DNA from: a virus
UHGV virus genome: UHGV-0082335
Strand: one strand, 5' to 3'
Length of the DNA stretch: 37,541 bases
This document shows positions 1 to 5,629 of this stretch, piece by piece. Both the position numbers and the translations under genes were made by a program. Position 1 is the first letter of the stretch; each line of letters starts with the position of its first letter. The notes beneath the pieces were generated by a model. That model did not search any database. It worked only from the letters and a program-made list of their open reading frames with translations, and was not told where the DNA came from.

Positions 1-85
1 CATGGTTCGCGTCAGGTCGTTGACAGCCGCACTCCATGACGGGTAAAAAGTGGATAAAATAATTTTACCCACCGGATTTTTACCC

Positions 86-1243
86 ATGCTCACCGTTAAG
101 CAGATTGAAGCAGCAAAGCCGAAAGAAAAACCATACCGCCTTCTCGATGGTAATGGCCTGTACCTTTATGTCCCTGTATCCGGGAAAAAGGTATGGCAGC
201 TTCGCTACAAGATTGACGGTAAGGAGAAAATCCTGACTGTCGGAAAATATCCGCTTATGACTTTGCAAGAGGCAAGGGATAAAGCATGGACTGCGAGGAA
301 AGACATCTCGGTTGGCATCGATCCGGTAAAGGCGAAAAAGGCTTCGTCTAACAACAATTCCTTTAGTGCGATTTACAAGGAATGGTACGAGCACAAGAAG
401 CAAGTCTGGTCAGTAGGCTATGCAAACGAACTTGCCAAAATGTTTGACGACGACATTTTACCCATCATCGGCGGCCTTGAAATTCAGGATATTGAGCCGA
501 TGCAACTGCTGGAAGTAATCCGCAGATTTGAAGATCGCGGTGCAATGGAGCGAGCCAACAAAGCCCGCAGAAGATGCGGAGAGGTTTTCCGTTACGCTAT
601 TGTCACCGGAAGGGCTAAATATAACCCGGCACCTGACCTTGCAGACGCCATGAAAGGATACCGCAAGAAGAACTTCCCGTTTCTTCCTGCAGACCAGATC
701 CCGGCATTCAACAAAGCACTTGCAACATTTTCAGGAAGTATCGTATCGCTCATTGCCACCAAGGTTTTACGCTATACAGCCCTAAGAACGAAAGAGCTTC
801 GTTCCATGCAATGGAAGAACGTCGATTTTGAAAACAGGATTATCACCATCGACGCCAATGTGATGAAGGGCCGCAAGATTCATGTAGTACCGATGTCAGA
901 CCAGGTAGTTGAACTTCTCACTACGCTAAGCTCAATCACCAAACCAGTATCAGAGTTTGTTTTTGCCGGGCGCAACGATAAGAAGAAGCCAATCTGCGAG
1001 AACGCGGTATTGCTTGTGATCAAACAAATCGGCTATGAGGGTCTGGAAAGCGGTCACGGATTCAGGCATGAATTCAGCACAATTATGAACGAGCACGAAT
1101 GGCCTGCTGACGCTATTGAAGTGCAACTGGCACATGCCAACGGCGGATCTGTGCGTGGGATTTACAACCATGCTCAGTATCTAGAAAAGCGCAGAGAAAT
1201 GATGCAATGGTGGGCGGATTGGATTGATGAAAAGGTGGAGTGA
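86..1243 (+). CDS. int: Tyrosine integrase, P4/IntS-type (385 aa); the six-frame ORF begins at GTG 50 but ATG 86 (MLTVKQIEAAKPK...) is the likely start
   Basis: N-terminal MLTVKQIEAAKPKEKPYRLLDGNGLYLYV is typical of P4-family arm-binding domains; the C-terminal catalytic region (RHEFST..., LAHANGGSVRGIYNH) fits a tyrosine recombinase. From memory it closely matches E. coli IntS of the argW-linked cryptic prophage. Confidence 0.9.
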   Translation: MLTVKQIEAAKPKEKPYRLLDGNGLYLYVPVSGKKVWQLRYKIDGKEKILTVGKYPLMTLQEARDKAWTARKDISVGIDPVKAKKASSNNNSFSAIYKEWYEHKKQVWSVGYANELAKMFDDDILPIIGGLEIQDIEPMQLLEVIRRFEDRGAMERANKARRRCGEVFRYAIVTGRAKYNPAPDLADAMKGYRKKNFPFLPADQIPAFNKALATFSGSIVSLIATKVLRYTALRTKELRSMQWKNVDFENRIITIDANVMKGRKIHVVPMSDQVVELLTTLSSITKPVSEFVFAGRNDKKKPICENAVLLVIKQIGYEGLESGHGFRHEFSTIMNEHEWPADAIEVQLAHANGGSVRGIYNHAQYLEKRREMMQWWADWIDEKVE

Positions 1244-1268: not shown

Positions 1269-1305
1269 ACAAAGCTTTGCAATCCAGACAAGGCTTTGTT
1301 TTGTC
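1269..1305 (+). terminator. Weak hairpin plus T-rich tail downstream of int
   Basis: ACAAAGC(1269-1275)/GCTTTGT(1293-1299) stem followed by TTTGTC; lies in the 91-bp gap between the convergent int and tailspike genes. Confidence 0.3.
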
Positions 1306-1334
1306 TAAGTTTGGTCACATTAGATGTGAAATCT

Positions 1335-3338
1335 TCAAATCAGCCCATAAATAACATTATGCAAATGAAGAGAGCCTGCTTCACCGGAAACATCAAAATC
1401 AATCCTAACTTTGCTTGCTCCAGGAGGAACAATATCTATTAATGCGTAGAAATTCCATGTGGAGCCTAGTGGAATTGTAAATGTTGCTTTTCCCTGAACA
1501 GAGTTCCCTTCTTTATCAAAAAACTCAATACCAGAGATTGTTGTCACTTGATTCTTAGCCCAAAAACCTAACTGGAAATATCGTCCTGGTGAGCAGTCTG
1601 AGCACTCCTGATAAAATTTTGCAGATGCTCCTATAGATGGTATTGCTACATACAAAGACCTGGAAAACATAATATCATTTGGAACATCAGAATCCGTTCC
1701 TGCTGTAACAACACCTGAACCAGTTTGTTGAAGGCTCCAGTTAGAGTAGTTTAAAAACTGTCCACTTCCATTTGATAGCGAATTTATGTATGGACTAACT
1801 ATGTTCCCTTTATCCCACTGAGTTGTTATAAATCCAGATCGTGGATAGCATCCATATGACATTATTTTTTTACTATTACCTCCAACTACCTGTCTAGTTG
1901 CTGATCCTGTCGCCAAATCCATTTGGTCAAATAAAGGCAATGAGCAATTTGTTAATGAAAGTACTGAATCATCATTTACAACAAACGGAACTGAACTATA
2001 TCCAGAGGGAGTAAGTAGCGTTGTATCTTTAATGCTTATTCTTGTGCTTCCAGATGCAGAGAACGCCACAAAGCTTTGACCTGGCTGAAACTCAATATTT
2101 CCACTTGAGTAAACAACGGTTGCGTTATCTTCAATAAAAACAGTAGAATCAAAATAACCTTCTTTCTTACCTGATGGCATAGAGCAACAGTTAAAAATAA
2201 ATTGACCATTTCTAATTGTCAATGGACCTCCATTATCAACAACCCAACAATTATTAAATGTCATTACCTCGCCTGAGTTTGATGGAGAATTAAATATAAT
2301 TGTGTTGTTTAGACATCTTGATATTGTTACTTTGTCAAATAAAATTCTATATGAATTATCAAGAAACTCAATTCCAGCAGATGATATGAATGAAGAATTA
2401 CTTATTCTTAACTCTGATAATTCACCAGTGCCAATACCTCCAAGTAAAATCTTTTTAGATCCTAGCATCTTAAAAGATATGCCATCTAAAATTGATGTTG
2501 CATTTATTTCATCCCTATTATCATAAGAAATATTAGAGTTGCTTAACCTAATTGCATAATCGCCTGATATCCCATTAATCTCAGTTAAAACGCATTTATT
2601 CGATCCTCTTATCCCACCCTTCGCGAAATCAATATCAATTAAAGACGAGAATTCTCCACTACATGGAACAACGCAATCATAACCTAGAGAGTTTATTTTA
2701 TTAATAAATAATGCAATATCCCCAGCGCCGCTGTAACCAGCGTCATATACAGAAAACTCAAGGCTTGGGTTTATTCTCTTCCAATTTACACCGTTACCTT
2801 CTAAAACCATTACGTTATCAACTGCAATTGACTTGTCTACAGCTACAACAAACCCACCACCAAGTTCGAGTCCGGATACGTATGATTTTAAATATAATTT
2901 ATCAGATATCGACATTCCTTGTATATCTTTAAGGGAGTTAGCGCTCTCTACCATTCCAATGTATTTGTATCCAATATTACTTGATAGTTTTATAGATAAC
3001 TGATCAGGATCATACTTCAGCACATTAGGAAAATAAAACTGCTGCGCACCATATGCATCATAAACAGCCATAGAATGGCCTTGCACAGTTACGAACTTGG
3101 CAATCTGCCCGTTATATACCGGGTAACCAGCAGCGTTAATGATGATTGGTTGCGAAACAGGAACGTGAGAACCGTCTTCGTTTTCCACATAAACCTGAAT
3201 CTGGTTTTCAGGATTTACCGGGTCAGTGTCAATTTTACCGATATAAATTTTGCCATTGGCTACGGCTTTAAAAGAACGAGCCATAGTGAAGAGTTGCGAA
3301 GGCATCGATACGATCACATTGGCTGTAATGTCTGTCAT
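1335..3338 (-). CDS. Tailspike protein (667 aa): P22 gp9-type N-terminal head-binding domain fused to a divergent receptor-binding domain
   Basis: First ~110 aa ([46 protein letters not shown]...LKYDPDQ) match the P22 tailspike head-binding domain as I recall it; the remainder is unrelated to the P22 endorhamnosidase domain and is Ser/Asn/Gly/Ile-rich, consistent with a beta-helix. Confidence 0.9.
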
Positions 3339-3395: not shown

Positions 3396-3420
3396 TAAAA
3401 AAACCCAGCCGAAGCTGGGT
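3396..3420 (-). terminator. Intrinsic terminator downstream of ant
   Basis: On the minus strand: ACCCAGC-UUCG-GCUGGGU stem-loop (3403-3420) followed by a 7-U run (3396-3402). Confidence 0.65.
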
Positions 3421-3438
3421 CGTTGCGTTGGTTATCTG

Positions 3439-4317
3439 TCAGTAGTTATGTACTGAAGGAGGCAATTCTTTATTCTTAAGTCTCATCCATGCGGAAAGAT
3501 TCGTTGGTCCGTCTGGCTCATTAATATCAACATCTCGTGTGTGGTTTATTAAAACGTCTCTCGCCATTCCGATAACATACGAGAATTCATGACCGTAGTC
3601 GTAGCATCTGCCGGAATAGTTCGATTGAATTTGTTTTAGCGCCGGATACAGTTCGCGGAATAATGCCTGTGAGCGGTTGGCATAATCCCATAACCATACA
3701 AGGCTGTTTGCTTCTTTTGCAGAAAGCTCGTTGGTTTTCTTCTCTTGTTTGCCAATGAACTCACCTTCAAGCACTACCCTGTGGATGTACTCTACGGCCA
3801 GCGGGATTTGTTCAATTGAAAGTTCATCAATGCTGTCAATACCAAAACGCTGATGAACCATATTGTATGCATCGTCATAGCGAAGTCCTTTCTTTCCTAC
3901 CAGCATGTTTACTGCATCGCGTAGCGGTGTTCTTTCCTCAACAGTGGTTTTCTTTCCTTTTACATACTCGCCATGTTTGCGAATTGAAGGCAGAACTTCT
4001 GCTGTTACCCACTTGCGGAATTTGTGCGGGACTGAACCTTTATTGACTGCATCGCGGCAGCGCAGAACCAATGTATACATACCTGATTCGCTCACAATGC
4101 TTAGATTCTGCTCACCACCAAGGGTGTAACTTAAAGTTACTCCCTTTTCATCGTCATCAAGTGCAGTAAGCGCCTTGCGTGAGTTAGTCAAATCTAAAGC
4201 ATCACAAACATCTTTAGCTACAAACCACGGCTCACCGCACTTGTTGATGACGCGGATTTCACTGTCGCCGAATTTGAAGATGGTGAAATCGTTTTGTGCC
4301 TTTGCTATACTTTTCAT
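3439..4317 (-). CDS. ant: Antirepressor Ant (292 aa)
   Basis: N-terminal antirepressor-type domain ([16 protein letters not shown]) and the position immediately downstream of arc, as in P22 immI. Confidence 0.85.
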
Positions 4318-4637: not shown

Positions 4638-4892
4638 ATGGCTAGAGATGATCCGCACTTTAACTTCCGTATGCCTTTGGAAGTAAGAGAAAAATTGAAA
4701 TTAAGAGCCGAGGCTAACGGAAGGTCAATGAACTCTGAGTTATTACAAATCGTTCAGGATGCACTATCAAAACCATCACCGATTACAGGATATCGCGACG
4801 AAGCTGAACGCTTGGCTGATCAGCAGGCTGAGCAGTTCAAGGCTATAGTGTTTGAGACACTTAAAAAGATTTATGAAAAGGATTTGAAATGA
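4638..4892 (+). CDS. mnt: Mnt maintenance repressor (84 aa)
   Basis: MARDDPHFNFRMPLEVREKLKLRAEANGRSMNSELLQIVQDALSKPSP closely matches P22 Mnt as I recall it; GGAGTG RBS; divergent from arc across the operators. Confidence 0.9.
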   Translation: MARDDPHFNFRMPLEVREKLKLRAEANGRSMNSELLQIVQDALSKPSPITGYRDEAERLADQQAEQFKAIVFETLKKIYEKDLK

Positions 4893-5224
4893 GATTTCTA
4901 TCACTGTTCTTGTTAGCAGTTGTCTCTTCTTCCAGTGCTGAGCTGCGCGAGCTTCAAACGGGTAATGACCTTCTTTACAACATTCAACAAGGTAAAAAGG
5001 GTGATGATTTTTCATCGCTTTACATTACTGGATATTTGCGCGGAGTAACTGACTCATTGATACTAATTGGTTCTCTATGTCCTCCTGATGGCGTTGACAT
5101 GTATCAATACACCGATATCGTTGAGAAATATCTAAACAAAAACCCAGAATCAAGAAATGAGAGTGCAGTTATACTAACCGCCCTAGCAGTAGGAAAAACA
5201 TTTCCGTGCAAAAAGAATCAATAA
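4889..5224 (+). CDS. Small secreted protein (111 aa), start overlaps the mnt stop (ATGA)
   Basis: N-terminal signal peptide MRFLSLFLLAVVSSSSA; helix-like mature region with two Cys (SLCPPDG, FPCKK); visibly AT-rich; translationally coupled to mnt. Confidence 0.6.
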   Translation: MRFLSLFLLAVVSSSSAELRELQTGNDLLYNIQQGKKGDDFSSLYITGYLRGVTDSLILIGSLCPPDGVDMYQYTDIVEKYLNKNPESRNESAVILTALAVGKTFPCKKNQ

Positions 5225-5239
5225 CAATAAGGGCTTAAA

Positions 5240-5629
5240 ATGAAATTGATTATAGCAATGGCTTTCCTTGTCTTCTCGTTTTCTGTCTCAGCAGAGTGCT
5301 GGGTCGTTGGAGATATGCACGGAATAAGCTATTCAGAACGAAATAATTTTCAACCGGAAGAAGATGGTTTTAGTGGAACATTCATCATTAAGACAAACGG
5401 TGAAGATGCCAGTATCACATATTCTGGGACGGATGCGGGCGGCATGGCTTACAAAGCATTGTCTAAAAACTCCATCATTGGAATCGGCGCGAATGGCGAA
5501 ACTCAACGAGTTATCGACTCATGGGTAATACATCCTAATGGAACAGTTTTAATGTCGAAAACCATTTCTGGTTATGGGAATATGGATTCAACCAAAGCTT
5601 TTGTTGGAAAAGTAAAAAGAAAATGTTAA
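5240..5629 (+). CDS. Small secreted protein (129 aa)
   Basis: Signal peptide MKLIIAMAFLVFSFSVSA; mature protein begins EC..., ends ...KRKC (two Cys), Gly/Ser/Thr-rich; AT-rich; RBS-like AAGGG upstream. Confidence 0.6.
   Translation: MKLIIAMAFLVFSFSVSAECWVVGDMHGISYSERNNFQPEEDGFSGTFIIKTNGEDASITYSGTDAGGMAYKALSKNSIIGIGANGETQRVIDSWVIHPNGTVLMSKTISGYGNMDSTKAFVGKVKRKC

Follow-up and report, generated by a model that had tools for sequence, protein, structure and literature searches.

A P22-like prophage tailspike with a horizontally acquired receptor-binding cassette homologous to the CBA120 tailspike 4 body and predicted to target the E. coli O78 O-antigen

The tailspike encoded in the 37,541-nucleotide window (the whole stretch of viral DNA analysed, UHGV-0082335) is a chimera in which a P22-type head-binding domain is joined to a horizontally acquired receptor-binding domain (RBD), as supported by breaks in both base composition and DNA similarity at the domain junction, where the preliminary description had also proposed one. 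The RBD is an exchangeable cassette homologous to the body of tailspike 4 (TSP4) of phage CBA120, carried here on the spike of a P22-like prophage, and probably targets the O78 O-antigen. The gene and the elements on either side of it are arranged as follows.

1335 to 3338, minus strand: complete tailspike gene, 667 codons with an ATG start in the open reading frame list and a stop codon at 1335-1337
50 to 1243, plus strand: IntS-type integrase gene from the open reading frame list, convergent with the tailspike gene across a 91-bp gap and forming the conserved flank to the right of the cassette
3402 to 3421, minus strand: hairpin resembling a terminator, in the interval that separates the tailspike start from the antirepressor gene (3439-4317), a pattern match only from a consensus scan

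The protein matches phrog_4217 ('tail protein') end to end (E 2e-264), and an identical tailspike is present on six public contigs, with ENA ERZ28580596 and Logan contigs among the sources of the exact protein. The genes for Arc, Mnt and Ant lie directly upstream, placing the tailspike at the end of the P22-type virion gene block, past the ejection-protein genes and the arc/mnt/ant immunity I region. The ant and int neighbours flank the tailspike likewise on one independent public contig, in the one place shown, and the gene order there agrees with that of the window. Virion, replication and immunity genes of P22-like type form a full set in the window, including those for the P22 coat, portal, gp10, needle knob and injectosome translocase, and the phage is apparently a complete P22-like (Lederbergvirus) prophage. 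All related genomes examined have a P22-like prophage beside a tRNA-Arg gene, next to yfdC, with int adjoining the tRNA-Arg gene, and the window integrase DNA is 95-97% identical to int of HK620, Sf6, CUS-3 and others. The hairpin upstream of the tailspike has an 8-bp stem with five G-C pairs followed by a T run, and the consensus scan finds no terminator in the 91-bp gap between the tailspike and int genes. The homologous tailspike-int region of HK620 has an annotated terminator.

The two parts of the chimera meet at codon 113/114.

3000 to 3338, minus strand: head-binding domain for virion attachment (PF09008), aa 1-113, with the conserved YDPDQ motif at its end
1321 to 2999, unstranded: horizontally exchanged receptor-binding cassette (RBD), comprising codons 114-667, the stop codon and ~15 nt beyond it

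Residues 1-113 cover positions 1-113 of the 113 in the Pfam Head_binding profile PF09008 (E 6.6e-67, 223 bits against a score cut-off of 24 bits), and the PDB matches of this region are the N-terminal domains of Sf6 gp14 and P22 gp9, in keeping with the P22-type domain of ~110 codons that had been proposed at about 3000-3338. The AlphaFold2 (AF2) model of aa 1-126 is unreliable (pLDDT < 50) because few aligned sequences share the N-terminal part, and the domain is assigned from the sequence matches instead. At the DNA level the head-binding region is 81.7-96.5% identical to the 5' ends of the tailspike genes in the P22-like phages listed (N7 96.5, CUS-3 95.0, HK620 91.6, Sf6 88.6, epsilon34 86.8 and g341c 81.7%), and the alignments stop at gene nt 338-342 in all except phiv205-1, which stops at nt 215. 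In CUS-3 an annotated 'boundary sequence' lies under the matched region. Similarity to phages HZ41, 611R6 and HK633 returns on the 3' side of the cassette at window ~1315-1320. The cassette is therefore placed at ~1321-2999, its bounds being set by the loss of similarity behind codon 113 and its return some 15 nt beyond the stop codon.

The base composition changes near the same junction, with a G+C content of 42.7% (GC3 41%) in codons 1-114, 35.4% (GC3 24%) in codons 115-667 and 47.7% elsewhere in the window. No other 1.66-kb stretch of the window has a G+C content as low as that of the RBD, and the best low-GC segment with two change points spans 1296-3040; a compositional break, on which the preliminary description had made its reading depend, is thus present, and its hand count of 15 G+C at 2341-2400 is reproduced exactly on computation. 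The RBD is also rich in Ser (13.7%), Gly (10.5%), Ile (9.0%) and Asn (7.2%), the four residues that had been named, with Leu likewise at 7.2%. It is extremely improbable that the AT-richness simply follows from the Ser, Asn and Ile content of the protein, or from local selection, with the gene having belonged to the phage lineage throughout, an explanation favoured by the abundance of amino acids with AT-rich codons and by a GC change point at window 3038-3040 that lies ~40 nt off the similarity break. When the RBD amino acids are recoded with the resident codon usage, taken from 14 other genes of the window phage, the expected G+C content is 44.4 +/- 0.7% compared with 35.4% observed (z = -12.3), and so the break is not due to protein composition; the head-binding part gives z = -1.4 in the same test, bearing out the contrast that had been drawn between an AT-rich RBD and a head-binding domain of ordinary composition. 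The drop in GC3 from 41% to 24%, the fall in DNA identity to sister phages from 82-97% to undetectable at codon 113/114 with its return 15 nt past the stop codon, and the presence of the same RBD in at least six phage groups whose N-terminal anchors are unrelated all argue for transfer. Homologous RBD segments are also below their own flanks in CBA120 (39.5 compared with 42.9% G+C) and vB_EcoM_ECOO78 (42.2 compared with 50.7%), and among these three measured members of the family AT-richness is highest in the window allele (GC3 24% compared with 31% and 34%). The very AT-rich synonymous sites thus indicate a cassette from a lower-GC gene pool that is not adapted to the window genome. Neither megablast nor blastn gives a DNA-level match to the RBD in the phage collection, and therefore no donor can be named.

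The RBD can be divided by comparison with TSP4 into a neck, a small insertion module, a beta-helix body and a C-terminal beta-sandwich.

2964 to 2999, minus strand: helix forming a neck or linker, aa 114-125, immediately following the recombination junction (AF2 helix 111-118)
2778 to 2942, minus strand: D3' module, aa ~133-187, inserted between neck and beta-helix as a small open-face beta-sandwich
1794 to 2741, minus strand: beta-helix body D3, aa ~200-515 with approximate bounds, the presumed O-antigen-binding and hydrolytic domain
1338 to 1793, minus strand: C-terminal D4 beta-sandwich module, aa ~516-667, carbohydrate-binding-module-like (AF2 strands 545-666)

The AF2 model has pLDDT values of 75-96 across most of aa 127-667, with weaker regions at ~471-530 and near the C terminus, and its top Foldseek match is chain A of PDB 5W6H (5w6h_A, E 2e-60, 558 aligned columns), the structure of the CBA120 TSP4 body, followed by Klebsiella K2 depolymerase tailspikes. 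HMMER likewise matches aa 113-667 to 5W6H (E 5e-213), and the comparison over neck, D3', beta-helix and D4 indicates the same fold; with an end-to-end alignment of this kind and 58% identity, the term "divergent" that had been applied to the RBD does not hold. TSP4 has an alpha-helical neck between head and body (PMC8825819, PMC7506556), and HMMER pairs tailspike residue 113 with residue 144 of the 5W6H chain. The bounds of D3' are those of TSP4 residues 503-557 (PMC7506556) transferred through the BLASTP register, in which residue 123 is paired with TSP4 residue 493, and in this region the model has strands at 126-130, 147-150 and 162-168 and a helix at 134-138 (pLDDT 83-95). In D3 it contains a series of short beta-strands at 221-495 (pLDDT mostly 80-96), and this series together with the match to 5w6h_A suggests that the beta-helix-like region foreseen in the preliminary description is correct; the model is of a monomer, and its best structural matches are trimeric tailspikes. 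An alignment of 37 sequences has the majority of its invariant columns within D3, where the invariant acidic residues D207, D221, D237, E253, E309, E324, D335, E357, D368, E416 and D457 are candidates only for catalytic roles, and no validated catalytic residues of TSP4 were found in the secondary literature on it. Local Foldseek matches to TmCBM61, CBM4-2 and CBM11 (TM 0.5-0.66, normalised to the target) are putatively assigned to D4, by inference because the Foldseek output gave no query coordinates. TSP4 D4 is likened to carbohydrate-binding proteins and described as a twisted beta-sandwich of antiparallel type (PMC7506556); this and the Foldseek matches are consistent with the carbohydrate-binding beta-sandwich that had been suggested at the C terminus, and both motifs quoted for it, [15 protein letters not shown] at aa 575-589 and KVRIDFDV at aa 643-650, are present in D4. 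The local Pfam search gives no family for the RBD, the library having been searched without PF27114, and precomputed annotations record a weak PF27114 'Phage_tail_beta' match on relatives.

The homology to TSP4 carries the assignment of the target. BLASTP against TSP4 gives 58% identity over 545 of the 554 RBD residues with one gap, well within the definition of a receptor-binding protein (RBP) subtype, for which an experimentally validated member must match no less than 60% of the RBD at 30% identity or more (PMC10408124), and the protein therefore belongs to the O78 subtype by this definition. CBA120 TSP4 is stated to cleave the O78 O-antigen of E. coli lipopolysaccharide (PMC8825819, PMC10408124, PMC7506556), and transplantation of TSP4 aa 480-1036, or of the whole tsp4 gene, results in infection of or spotting on O78 strains (PMC9965104, PMC11414711). 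The transplanted unit aligns with tailspike aa ~110-667. A review notes that the O78 host of TSP4 was predicted through prophage tailspike homologues (PMC6966330). The preliminary description had called the specificity unknown, a view it tied to the C-terminal region aligning to no characterised tailspike of known specificity; CBA120 TSP4, a reported O78 O-antigen cleaver (PMC8825819), is such a tailspike, and the RBD aligns with it and with the tailspikes of phages propagated on O78 strains. The analysis shows the domain layout, the bounds of the cassette, its foreign composition, the homology and fold, and the enrichment among O78 genomes; from the homology we infer the O78 specificity of this allele, its hydrolase chemistry, its trimeric state and where its catalytic site lies. 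With 58% identity to the only biochemically validated member, the specificity may have shifted.

RBD homologues with 55-69% identity occur in tailspikes of phages from several families and genera, and an O78 host is named in at least 12 of the 40 phage records listed, including ECOO78, EC1-UPM, AVIO78A, ASO78B, phiWAO78-1, phiHAO78-1 (host APEC E19057, typed O78:H4) and XT18/32/73. The closest phage homologue among the matches listed, Dpo42 of vB_EcoM_ECOO78, removed Maneval-stained capsule and reduced biofilm, and its substrate was called capsular polysaccharide (PMC5539073); with the EC1-UPM host being typed O78:K80, these observations would favour a capsule depolymerase directed at a capsular polysaccharide such as K80, historically paired with O78, or at an O-antigen capsule. 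This is unlikely, as the polymer was not chemically identified in the Dpo42 study (PMC5539073), the association seen is with the O78 wzy/wzx locus, and two sources state that TSP4 cleaves the lipopolysaccharide O-antigen of O78 (PMC8825819, PMC10408124). An O-antigen capsule would have the O78 repeat unit, and the capsule and O-antigen readings may therefore coincide.

The association with the O78 locus comes from 5,426 complete E. coli genomes, 18 of which carry the RBD and 40 the O78 wzy, with an overlap of nine (Fisher p = 1e-15). Each distinct allele is found in an O78 genome, namely the 99% group, the 93% ZY22049 allele and the 70-80% homologues (E7, H10407/SEC470 and APEC17). The other 9 of the 18 carriers are not O78 (seven O100, one O35 and one O145). 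They would fit an allele that has drifted to another or broader specificity, such as O100, O35, O145 or an O78-like antigen of Salmonella or Citrobacter, as would Salmonella enterica, including subsp. diarizonae, in which 667-aa P22-type tailspikes with RBDs 77-86% identical occupy the same tRNA-Arg/yfdC site, and the related RBDs of Citrobacter, the carriers in the two genera together spanning 66-86% RBD identity. Drift is nevertheless improbable. The prophages inspected in the non-O78 carriers are defective, and a defective prophage is uninformative on current adsorption. The O35 and O145 carriers XB2 and NC22 have the same tailspike (WP_048943226.1) and integrase proteins as the O78 strain ACN001 and represent one prophage that is differently deleted; isolateD and Survcare253, the O100 genomes inspected, share one 15-kb remnant, and the other five O100 genomes are assumed to be alike from identical or near-identical coordinates. 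The chromosomal flanks are virtually identical to those of strain TW14425, typed O78 from its annotated rfb locus (a literature search linking TW14425 with O78 returned no match), and an 18.5-kb flank is 99.98-99.995% identical between O78, O100 and O35 strains. RBP subtypes are moreover reported to keep their serogroup down to ~30% identity (PMC10408124). The decayed copies common to O78 strains point to O-antigen switching after lysogeny in the nine exceptions. The O100, O35 and O145 carriers were accordingly rejected as an argument against O78 specificity on account of the shared defective prophages and near-identical flanks. As a side illustration that adds no new principle, decayed prophage tailspikes would keep the ancestral O-type of lineages that later changed serogroup.

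No usable result came from searching for an O-antigen of Salmonella akin to E. coli O78. The AT-richness of the allele and its close relatives in Salmonella enterica prophages at the same site leave room for a recent origin of the cassette in some low-GC phage lineage not yet sampled, with recognition of something other than the classical O78 repeat, such as a shared or modified epitope spanning E. coli, Salmonella and Citrobacter; this is distinctly improbable and, if true, would make it a cross-genus host-range module.

For a spike directed at the O78 O-antigen, the proposed sequence of events begins with the cassette, which recombined into a P22-like gene exactly after YDPDQ and ~15 nt beyond the stop codon. 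Residues 1-113 would dock the tailspike trimer onto the tail hub, and aa 114-667 (neck, D3', beta-helix and C-terminal beta-sandwich) would form the exchangeable cassette homologous to the TSP4 body. By homology, this body is predicted to bind and then hydrolyse the O78 O-antigen of E. coli lipopolysaccharide, which may let the virion progress down to the outer membrane. The host range of a phage whose spike digests the O78 O-antigen would therefore be O78 strains.

Exchange of the RBD after a conserved head-binding domain is textbook for P22-like phages, and the modular swap seen here carries little weight for basic biology. There is some practical use in that the window supplies a temperate phage, apparently intact, whose spike is predicted to be of O78 type. 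Since avian pathogenic and enterotoxigenic E. coli include O78 among their major serogroups, the protein could serve typing, engineered pyocins and depolymerase work.

The tailspikes of P22, Sf6, HK620 and CUS-3 share the head-binding domain (82-96.5% DNA identity where alignable), the gene position and the swap point with the window tailspike, whereas their RBDs have no sequence relationship to its own and digest different polysaccharides. Salmonella O-antigens and a Shigella flexneri O-antigen are among the targets of this group, and the endosialidase tailspike of CUS-3 is annotated as acting on K1 polysialic acid. The 91-bp gap between tailspike and int in the window differs from P22 and Sf6, which have O-antigen-modifying genes at this place. 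E. coli O18 is one of the polysaccharides cleaved within the group (PMC10408124 Table S1).

CBA120 TSP4 (ORF213, Kuttervirus) resembles the window tailspike in the neck, D3', beta-helix D3 and beta-sandwich D4, and its experimental transplant unit (aa 480-1036) corresponds to the natural cassette here (PMC9965104). The N-terminal region of TSP4 is unlike that of the window protein, with a ~340-aa baseplate anchor of gp10-like domains and a D1-D2 head (PF18668) by which it forms part of a branched four-spike complex in a myovirus (PMC8825819), whereas the window protein, with its 113-aa P22 head-binding domain, is the only type of spike of a podovirus. PF18668 (Tail_spike_N) is absent from the window tailspike even at E <= 1 and is present in TSP4 and the Dpo42-like protein. 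As only the body is common with TSP4, the window tailspike as a whole is therefore not a member of the Ackermannviridae branched-complex family, and the coding G+C content of its RBD is 35.4% compared with 39.5% in CBA120.

Dpo42 (ORF42 of the Jilinvirus vB_EcoM_ECOO78) and the ep3 tail protein have the closest RBDs among the matches listed (68.5-68.7% over 550 aa by tblastn), Dpo42 being 63% identical over a longer BLASTP alignment. Recombinant Dpo42 has depolymerase and anti-biofilm activity, and its phage was isolated on an O78 strain (PMC5539073). It differs in an unrelated N-terminal region of ~190 aa (a PF18668-type anchor), in coming from a virulent myovirus and in a substrate that was called capsule. 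The RBP of the Lederbergvirus prophage RHB17-C10 (CP057690.1), which lies outside the complete genomes searched, combines a P22-like anchor with an O78-subtype RBD at a boundary at aa 123 (PMC10408124), the subtype having been assigned in silico (PMC10408124 Table S1, Fig. 7). Likened by published architecture and not by sequence, it is the same kind of chimera as the window gene, and the catalogue of PMC10408124 already lists an O78-type body on a Lederbergvirus anchor.

The tailspike gene runs on the minus strand from an ATG start over 667 codons (1335-3338), exactly as the preliminary description placed it, and is the last virion gene of the prophage. The sole Pfam domain in the protein is PF09008 (Head_binding), which matches residues 1-113 (E 6.6e-67); these residues form the P22/Sf6 virion-attachment domain, and by this domain and its gene position the tailspike is a member of the P22-like gp9 family. 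A PDB sequence search with residues 113-667 returns one overwhelming match, 5W6H_A, the "tailspike protein 4" (TSP4) of phage CBA120 (E 5e-213), with the alignment covering chain residues 144-697 and reaching the C terminus. By BLASTP the full 1,036-amino acid TSP4 (ORF213) aligns over 545 residues with one gap, 58% of them identical and 75% positive. The AlphaFold2 model, calculated from a 37-sequence alignment, has pLDDT values of 75-96 across most of residues 127-667 and is weaker at about 471-530 and near the C terminus. Foldseek likewise ranks 5w6h_A first among the PDB matches of the model (E 2e-60) and Klebsiella K2 capsule depolymerase tailspikes next, and local matches of ~150-175 columns to the carbohydrate-binding modules (CBM) CBM61, CBM4-2, and CBM11 probably belong to the C-terminal module. 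Both the sequence and the fold predicted for the receptor-binding domain (RBD, residues 114-667) show homology to a tailspike body that cleaves O-antigen.

The published domain order of TSP4 is a neck helix, a small domain D3' (residues 503-557), the β-helix D3, and a large C-terminal β-sandwich D4. The limits of the RBD domains were carried over from TSP4 through the alignment.

3000-3338, minus strand: PF09008 Head_binding, residues 1-113, Pfam match
2964-2999, minus strand: neck, residues 114-125, mapped from TSP4
2778-2942, minus strand: D3', residues ~133-187, mapped from TSP4
1794-2741, minus strand: β-helix D3, residues ~200-515, mapped from TSP4
1338-1793, minus strand: D4, residues ~516-667, mapped from TSP4

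This mapping bears out the β-helix body proposed earlier, as do the model and the Foldseek matches, and likewise the proposed carbohydrate-binding-type terminal β-sandwich, which corresponds to D4, where the local CBM matches probably belong. The structural reading was good; its appeal rested on an "unknown specificity" that dissolves at the first database search, with the RBD homologous to the TSP4 body.

TSP4 is reported to cleave the O78 lipopolysaccharide (LPS) O-antigen and to be used by CBA120 to infect O78 strains (PMC8825819; PMC10408124). Two engineering studies show its body to be a portable specificity module: residues 480-1036, equivalent to approximately residues 110-667 of the window tailspike, produce spots on an O78 strain when grafted onto another Ackermannviridae phage (PMC9965104), and phage S117 forms plaques on E. 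coli O78 once it carries the tsp4 gene (PMC11414711). When residues 114-667 are compared with the phage collection by tblastn, 48 records match at 55-69% identity, in phages differing widely in N-terminal anchor and virion type (Jilinvirus ECOO78 and ep3, Kuttervirus, Gamaleyavirus, Kagunavirus, Justusliebigvirus, and siphoviruses), with an O78 host named in at least 12 of the 40 records listed, either in the host field or as a strain typed O78 here. The closest phage homologue in this search (68.5%) is ORF42 of vB_EcoM_ECOO78, the characterised depolymerase Dpo42 (PMC5539073). A capsule substrate rather than LPS, as the capsule-staining result for Dpo42 (PMC5539073) would suggest, is less likely, and the capsule may be the same polymer as the LPS O-antigen in another form. 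The window allele is likely to be specific for the O78 O-antigen. By analogy with TSP4, the tailspike trimer would bind O78 O-antigen chains along the β-helix and hydrolyse them, so that the virion reaches the outer membrane; D4 may help to bind the polysaccharide, and the host range of the phage would be O78 strains. The catalytic carboxylates of the CBA120 tailspikes are thought to be at subunit interfaces (PMC7506556). The acidic positions invariant in the family alignment (Asp-207, Asp-221, Asp-237, Glu-253, Glu-309, Glu-324, Asp-335, Glu-357, Asp-368, Glu-416, and Asp-457) can only be offered as candidate catalytic residues.

Of 5,426 complete E. coli genomes searched, the full tailspike gene is present in 14 at 93-99.7% identity and an RBD homologue, by a more sensitive search, in 18. 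RBD carriers are strongly enriched among O78 genomes. The O-antigen locus of strain TW14425 has annotated O78-family wzy and wzx genes, and wzy of this type, present in 40 of the 5,426 genomes, occurs in 9 of the 18 carriers compared with ~0.13 expected (Fisher p = 1e-15). These are TW14425, VTB97022v, H3, ACN001, ZY22049, E7, SEC470, H10407, and APEC17. Each distinct allele (the 99% group, the ZY22049 allele at 93%, and the homologues of 70-80% identity in other prophage proteins) is found in some O78 genome. H3, with different flanking alleles, has a different defective prophage and a spike 99.7% identical, consistent with a separate acquisition.

The nine non-O78 carriers (seven with O100 wzy, XB2 with an O35 locus, and NC22 with an O145 locus) suggest a shifted or broadened specificity, as do relatives in Salmonella and Citrobacter. 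A wider protein search finds 667-amino acid P22-type tailspikes in Salmonella enterica with RBDs 77-86% identical, and 765- and 678-amino acid proteins with related RBDs in Salmonella, E. coli, and Citrobacter. The S. enterica tailspikes (GCA_016492965.1, GCA_022993425.1, GCA_029322075.1, and run SRR14432261; loci L015-L018), including those of subsp. diarizonae, are in prophages at the same int/yfdC/mlaA site, and the related RBDs of Citrobacter sit on other anchors. A shift is made less probable by the non-O78 exceptions being clonal and defective, and by receptor-binding protein (RBP) subtypes being reported to keep their serogroup down to ~30% identity (PMC10408124). One 15-kb prophage remnant without head, lysis, or replication genes is present in identical form in the O100 strains isolateD and Survcare253, and the other five O100 carriers are assumed from identical or near-identical coordinates to be the same clone. 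XB2, NC22, and the O78 strain ACN001 have the same tailspike (WP_048943226.1) and integrase (WP_048943225.1) in one prophage, present as three copies with different deletions. TW14425 (O78), isolateD (O100), and XB2 (O35) share an 18.5-kb chromosomal flank at 99.98-99.995% identity. From the shared remnants and flanks the nine do not look like independent infections, and the simplest reading is that one clonal lineage was lysogenised while O78 and its rfb locus switched afterwards.

The O100-, O35-, and O145-typed strains carry decayed copies, with an O78-type tailspike, of the tRNA-Arg-site prophage of the O78 strains TW14425 and ACN001 (NZ_CP135488.1, NZ_CP076305.1, NZ_CP162303.1, and NZ_CP109953.1; loci L005, L006, L008-L011, and L014). 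A decaying prophage tailspike thereby appears to record the earlier serogroup of a lineage after O-antigen switching. The rfb region of isolateD (L005 17709-37289, NZ_CP135488.1) is a tandem hybrid: a partial O154-family cluster (galF, rfbBDAC, wzx, and glycosyltransferases) comes first, then IS1 and another galF, and last a complete O100-family cluster. This arrangement has the appearance of an O-antigen locus replacement caught midway.

At the DNA level the RBD is sharply delimited. A megablast of the tailspike gene against 50,697 phage records matches only the first 338-342 nt, with identities of 96.5% (N7), 95.0% (CUS-3), 91.6% (HK620), 88.6% (Sf6), 86.8% (epsilon34), and 81.7% (g341c); the alignment with phiv205-1 stops earlier, at nt 215. 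From this limit and the junction sequence (...AAG TAT GAT CCT GAT CAG / TTA TCT ATA AAA CTA TCA...), similarity stops after codon 113, where the conserved YDPDQ motif ends. The CUS-3 record has a depositor-annotated "boundary sequence" beneath the matching region. On the 3' side, similarity to HZ41, 611R6, and HK633 returns at about 1315-1320, ~15 nt past the stop codon, and spans the convergent integrase gene at 95-97% identity. These breaks define an exchanged cassette of approximately 1321-2999, an extent that nearly coincides with the codons for residues 114-667. No DNA-level donor for the RBD is found among the 50,697 records.

Codons 1-114 have a G+C content of 42.7% (GC3 41%) compared with 35.4% (GC3 24%) for codons 115-667 and 47.7% for the rest of the window. 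No other 1.66-kb stretch in the 37.5 kb has a G+C content as low as that of the receptor-binding part, fitting two change points puts the low-GC segment at 1296-3040, and the earlier hand count of 15 G+C at 2341-2400 is exact. The computation puts the proposed compositional break between the two parts far beyond chance. That the AT-richness is intrinsic and no sign of transfer is contradicted by the sharp similarity breaks and by synonymous sites: recoding the same amino acids by the codon preferences seen in 14 further genes of the phage gives 44.4 ± 0.7% G+C, 12 standard deviations above the observed 35.4%, so the drop is not a by-product of a Ser/Gly/Ile/Asn-rich protein. The head-binding part lies at most 1.4 standard deviations from its recoded expectation. 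The cassette has foreign composition and edges that are sharp recombination joints; as first proposed, the tailspike is almost certainly chimeric with a horizontally acquired RBD. The RBD is also lower in G+C than its flanks in CBA120 (39.5 versus 42.9%) and ECOO78 (42.2 versus 50.7%), so the AT-richness seems to move with the cassette, and of the three copies measured the one in the window is the most AT-rich.

The window looks like a complete P22-like prophage, with genes for coat, portal, terminase, gp10, an Sf6-type needle knob, an injectosome translocase, a DnaB-type helicase, a CI-type repressor, Arc, Mnt, and Ant.

50-1243, plus strand: integrase, converging on the tailspike with 91 bp between
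3402-3421, minus strand: strong terminator-like hairpin (8-bp stem and T run) between the antirepressor gene and the tailspike start codon
4638-4892: mnt
4889-5224, plus strand: 111-amino acid ORF, Pfam PF18602 "Rap1a immunity proteins" (E 9.7e-15, above cut-off)
5240-5629, plus strand: 129-amino acid ORF, no family, signal-peptide-like N terminus

The integrase gene adjoins a tRNA-Arg gene beside yfdC in every related genome, and by TW14425 (L001 23254-23489) window position 1 is 77 nt from it. The integrase start faces the tRNA-Arg gene (1-49 side), placing the attachment site upstream of int as annotated in HK620, and the left att core probably falls a little beyond the window edge. The interval between the tailspike and integrase stop codons (1244-1334) contains no O-antigen-modifying gene of the gtr or oac type and, by consensus scan, no terminator. 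P22 and Sf6 have O-antigen-modifying genes at the matching position. The 4889-5224 ORF overlaps mnt by 4 nt directly downstream and, with the 5240-5629 ORF, lies within a low-GC patch (36-39% in 5001-5400), where P22 has sieA. Its Pfam match makes the 4889-5224 ORF a possible moron, an orphan type VI secretion immunity gene carried by the prophage. An IS66 interrupts the antirepressor gene in TW14425 (L001 16526-19900) and an IS2 the tailspike gene in VTB97022v (NZ_CP178670.1 1481770-1485112). No NCBI accession covers the exact tailspike protein, which occurs in six public contigs, one a 357-kb scaffold from a human gut metagenome assembly. It belongs to a 90%-identity cluster of 152 members; those listed are all from E. 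coli, and most bear only the name "phage head-binding domain-containing protein."

The window tailspike would work like TSP4 of CBA120. It is not a whole-protein member of the Ackermannviridae tailspike family, as it has neither the anchor nor the D1-D2 head, and PF18668, present in TSP4, is absent. The RBD falls within the O78 RBP subtype as published (PMC10408124). According to a review, the O78 host of TSP4 was predicted by way of homologous prophage tailspikes, in which sequence and host O-antigen are correlated (PMC6966330). The combination of a P22-like anchor with an O78-type RBD is already known in kind, since a Lederbergvirus O78 RBP is listed in PMC10408124: the prophage RBP of strain RHB17-C10, with its anchor/RBD boundary at residue 123, is by its published description the same combination as the window tailspike, and Fig. 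7 of that paper shows Lederbergvirus and Kagunavirus O78 spikes.
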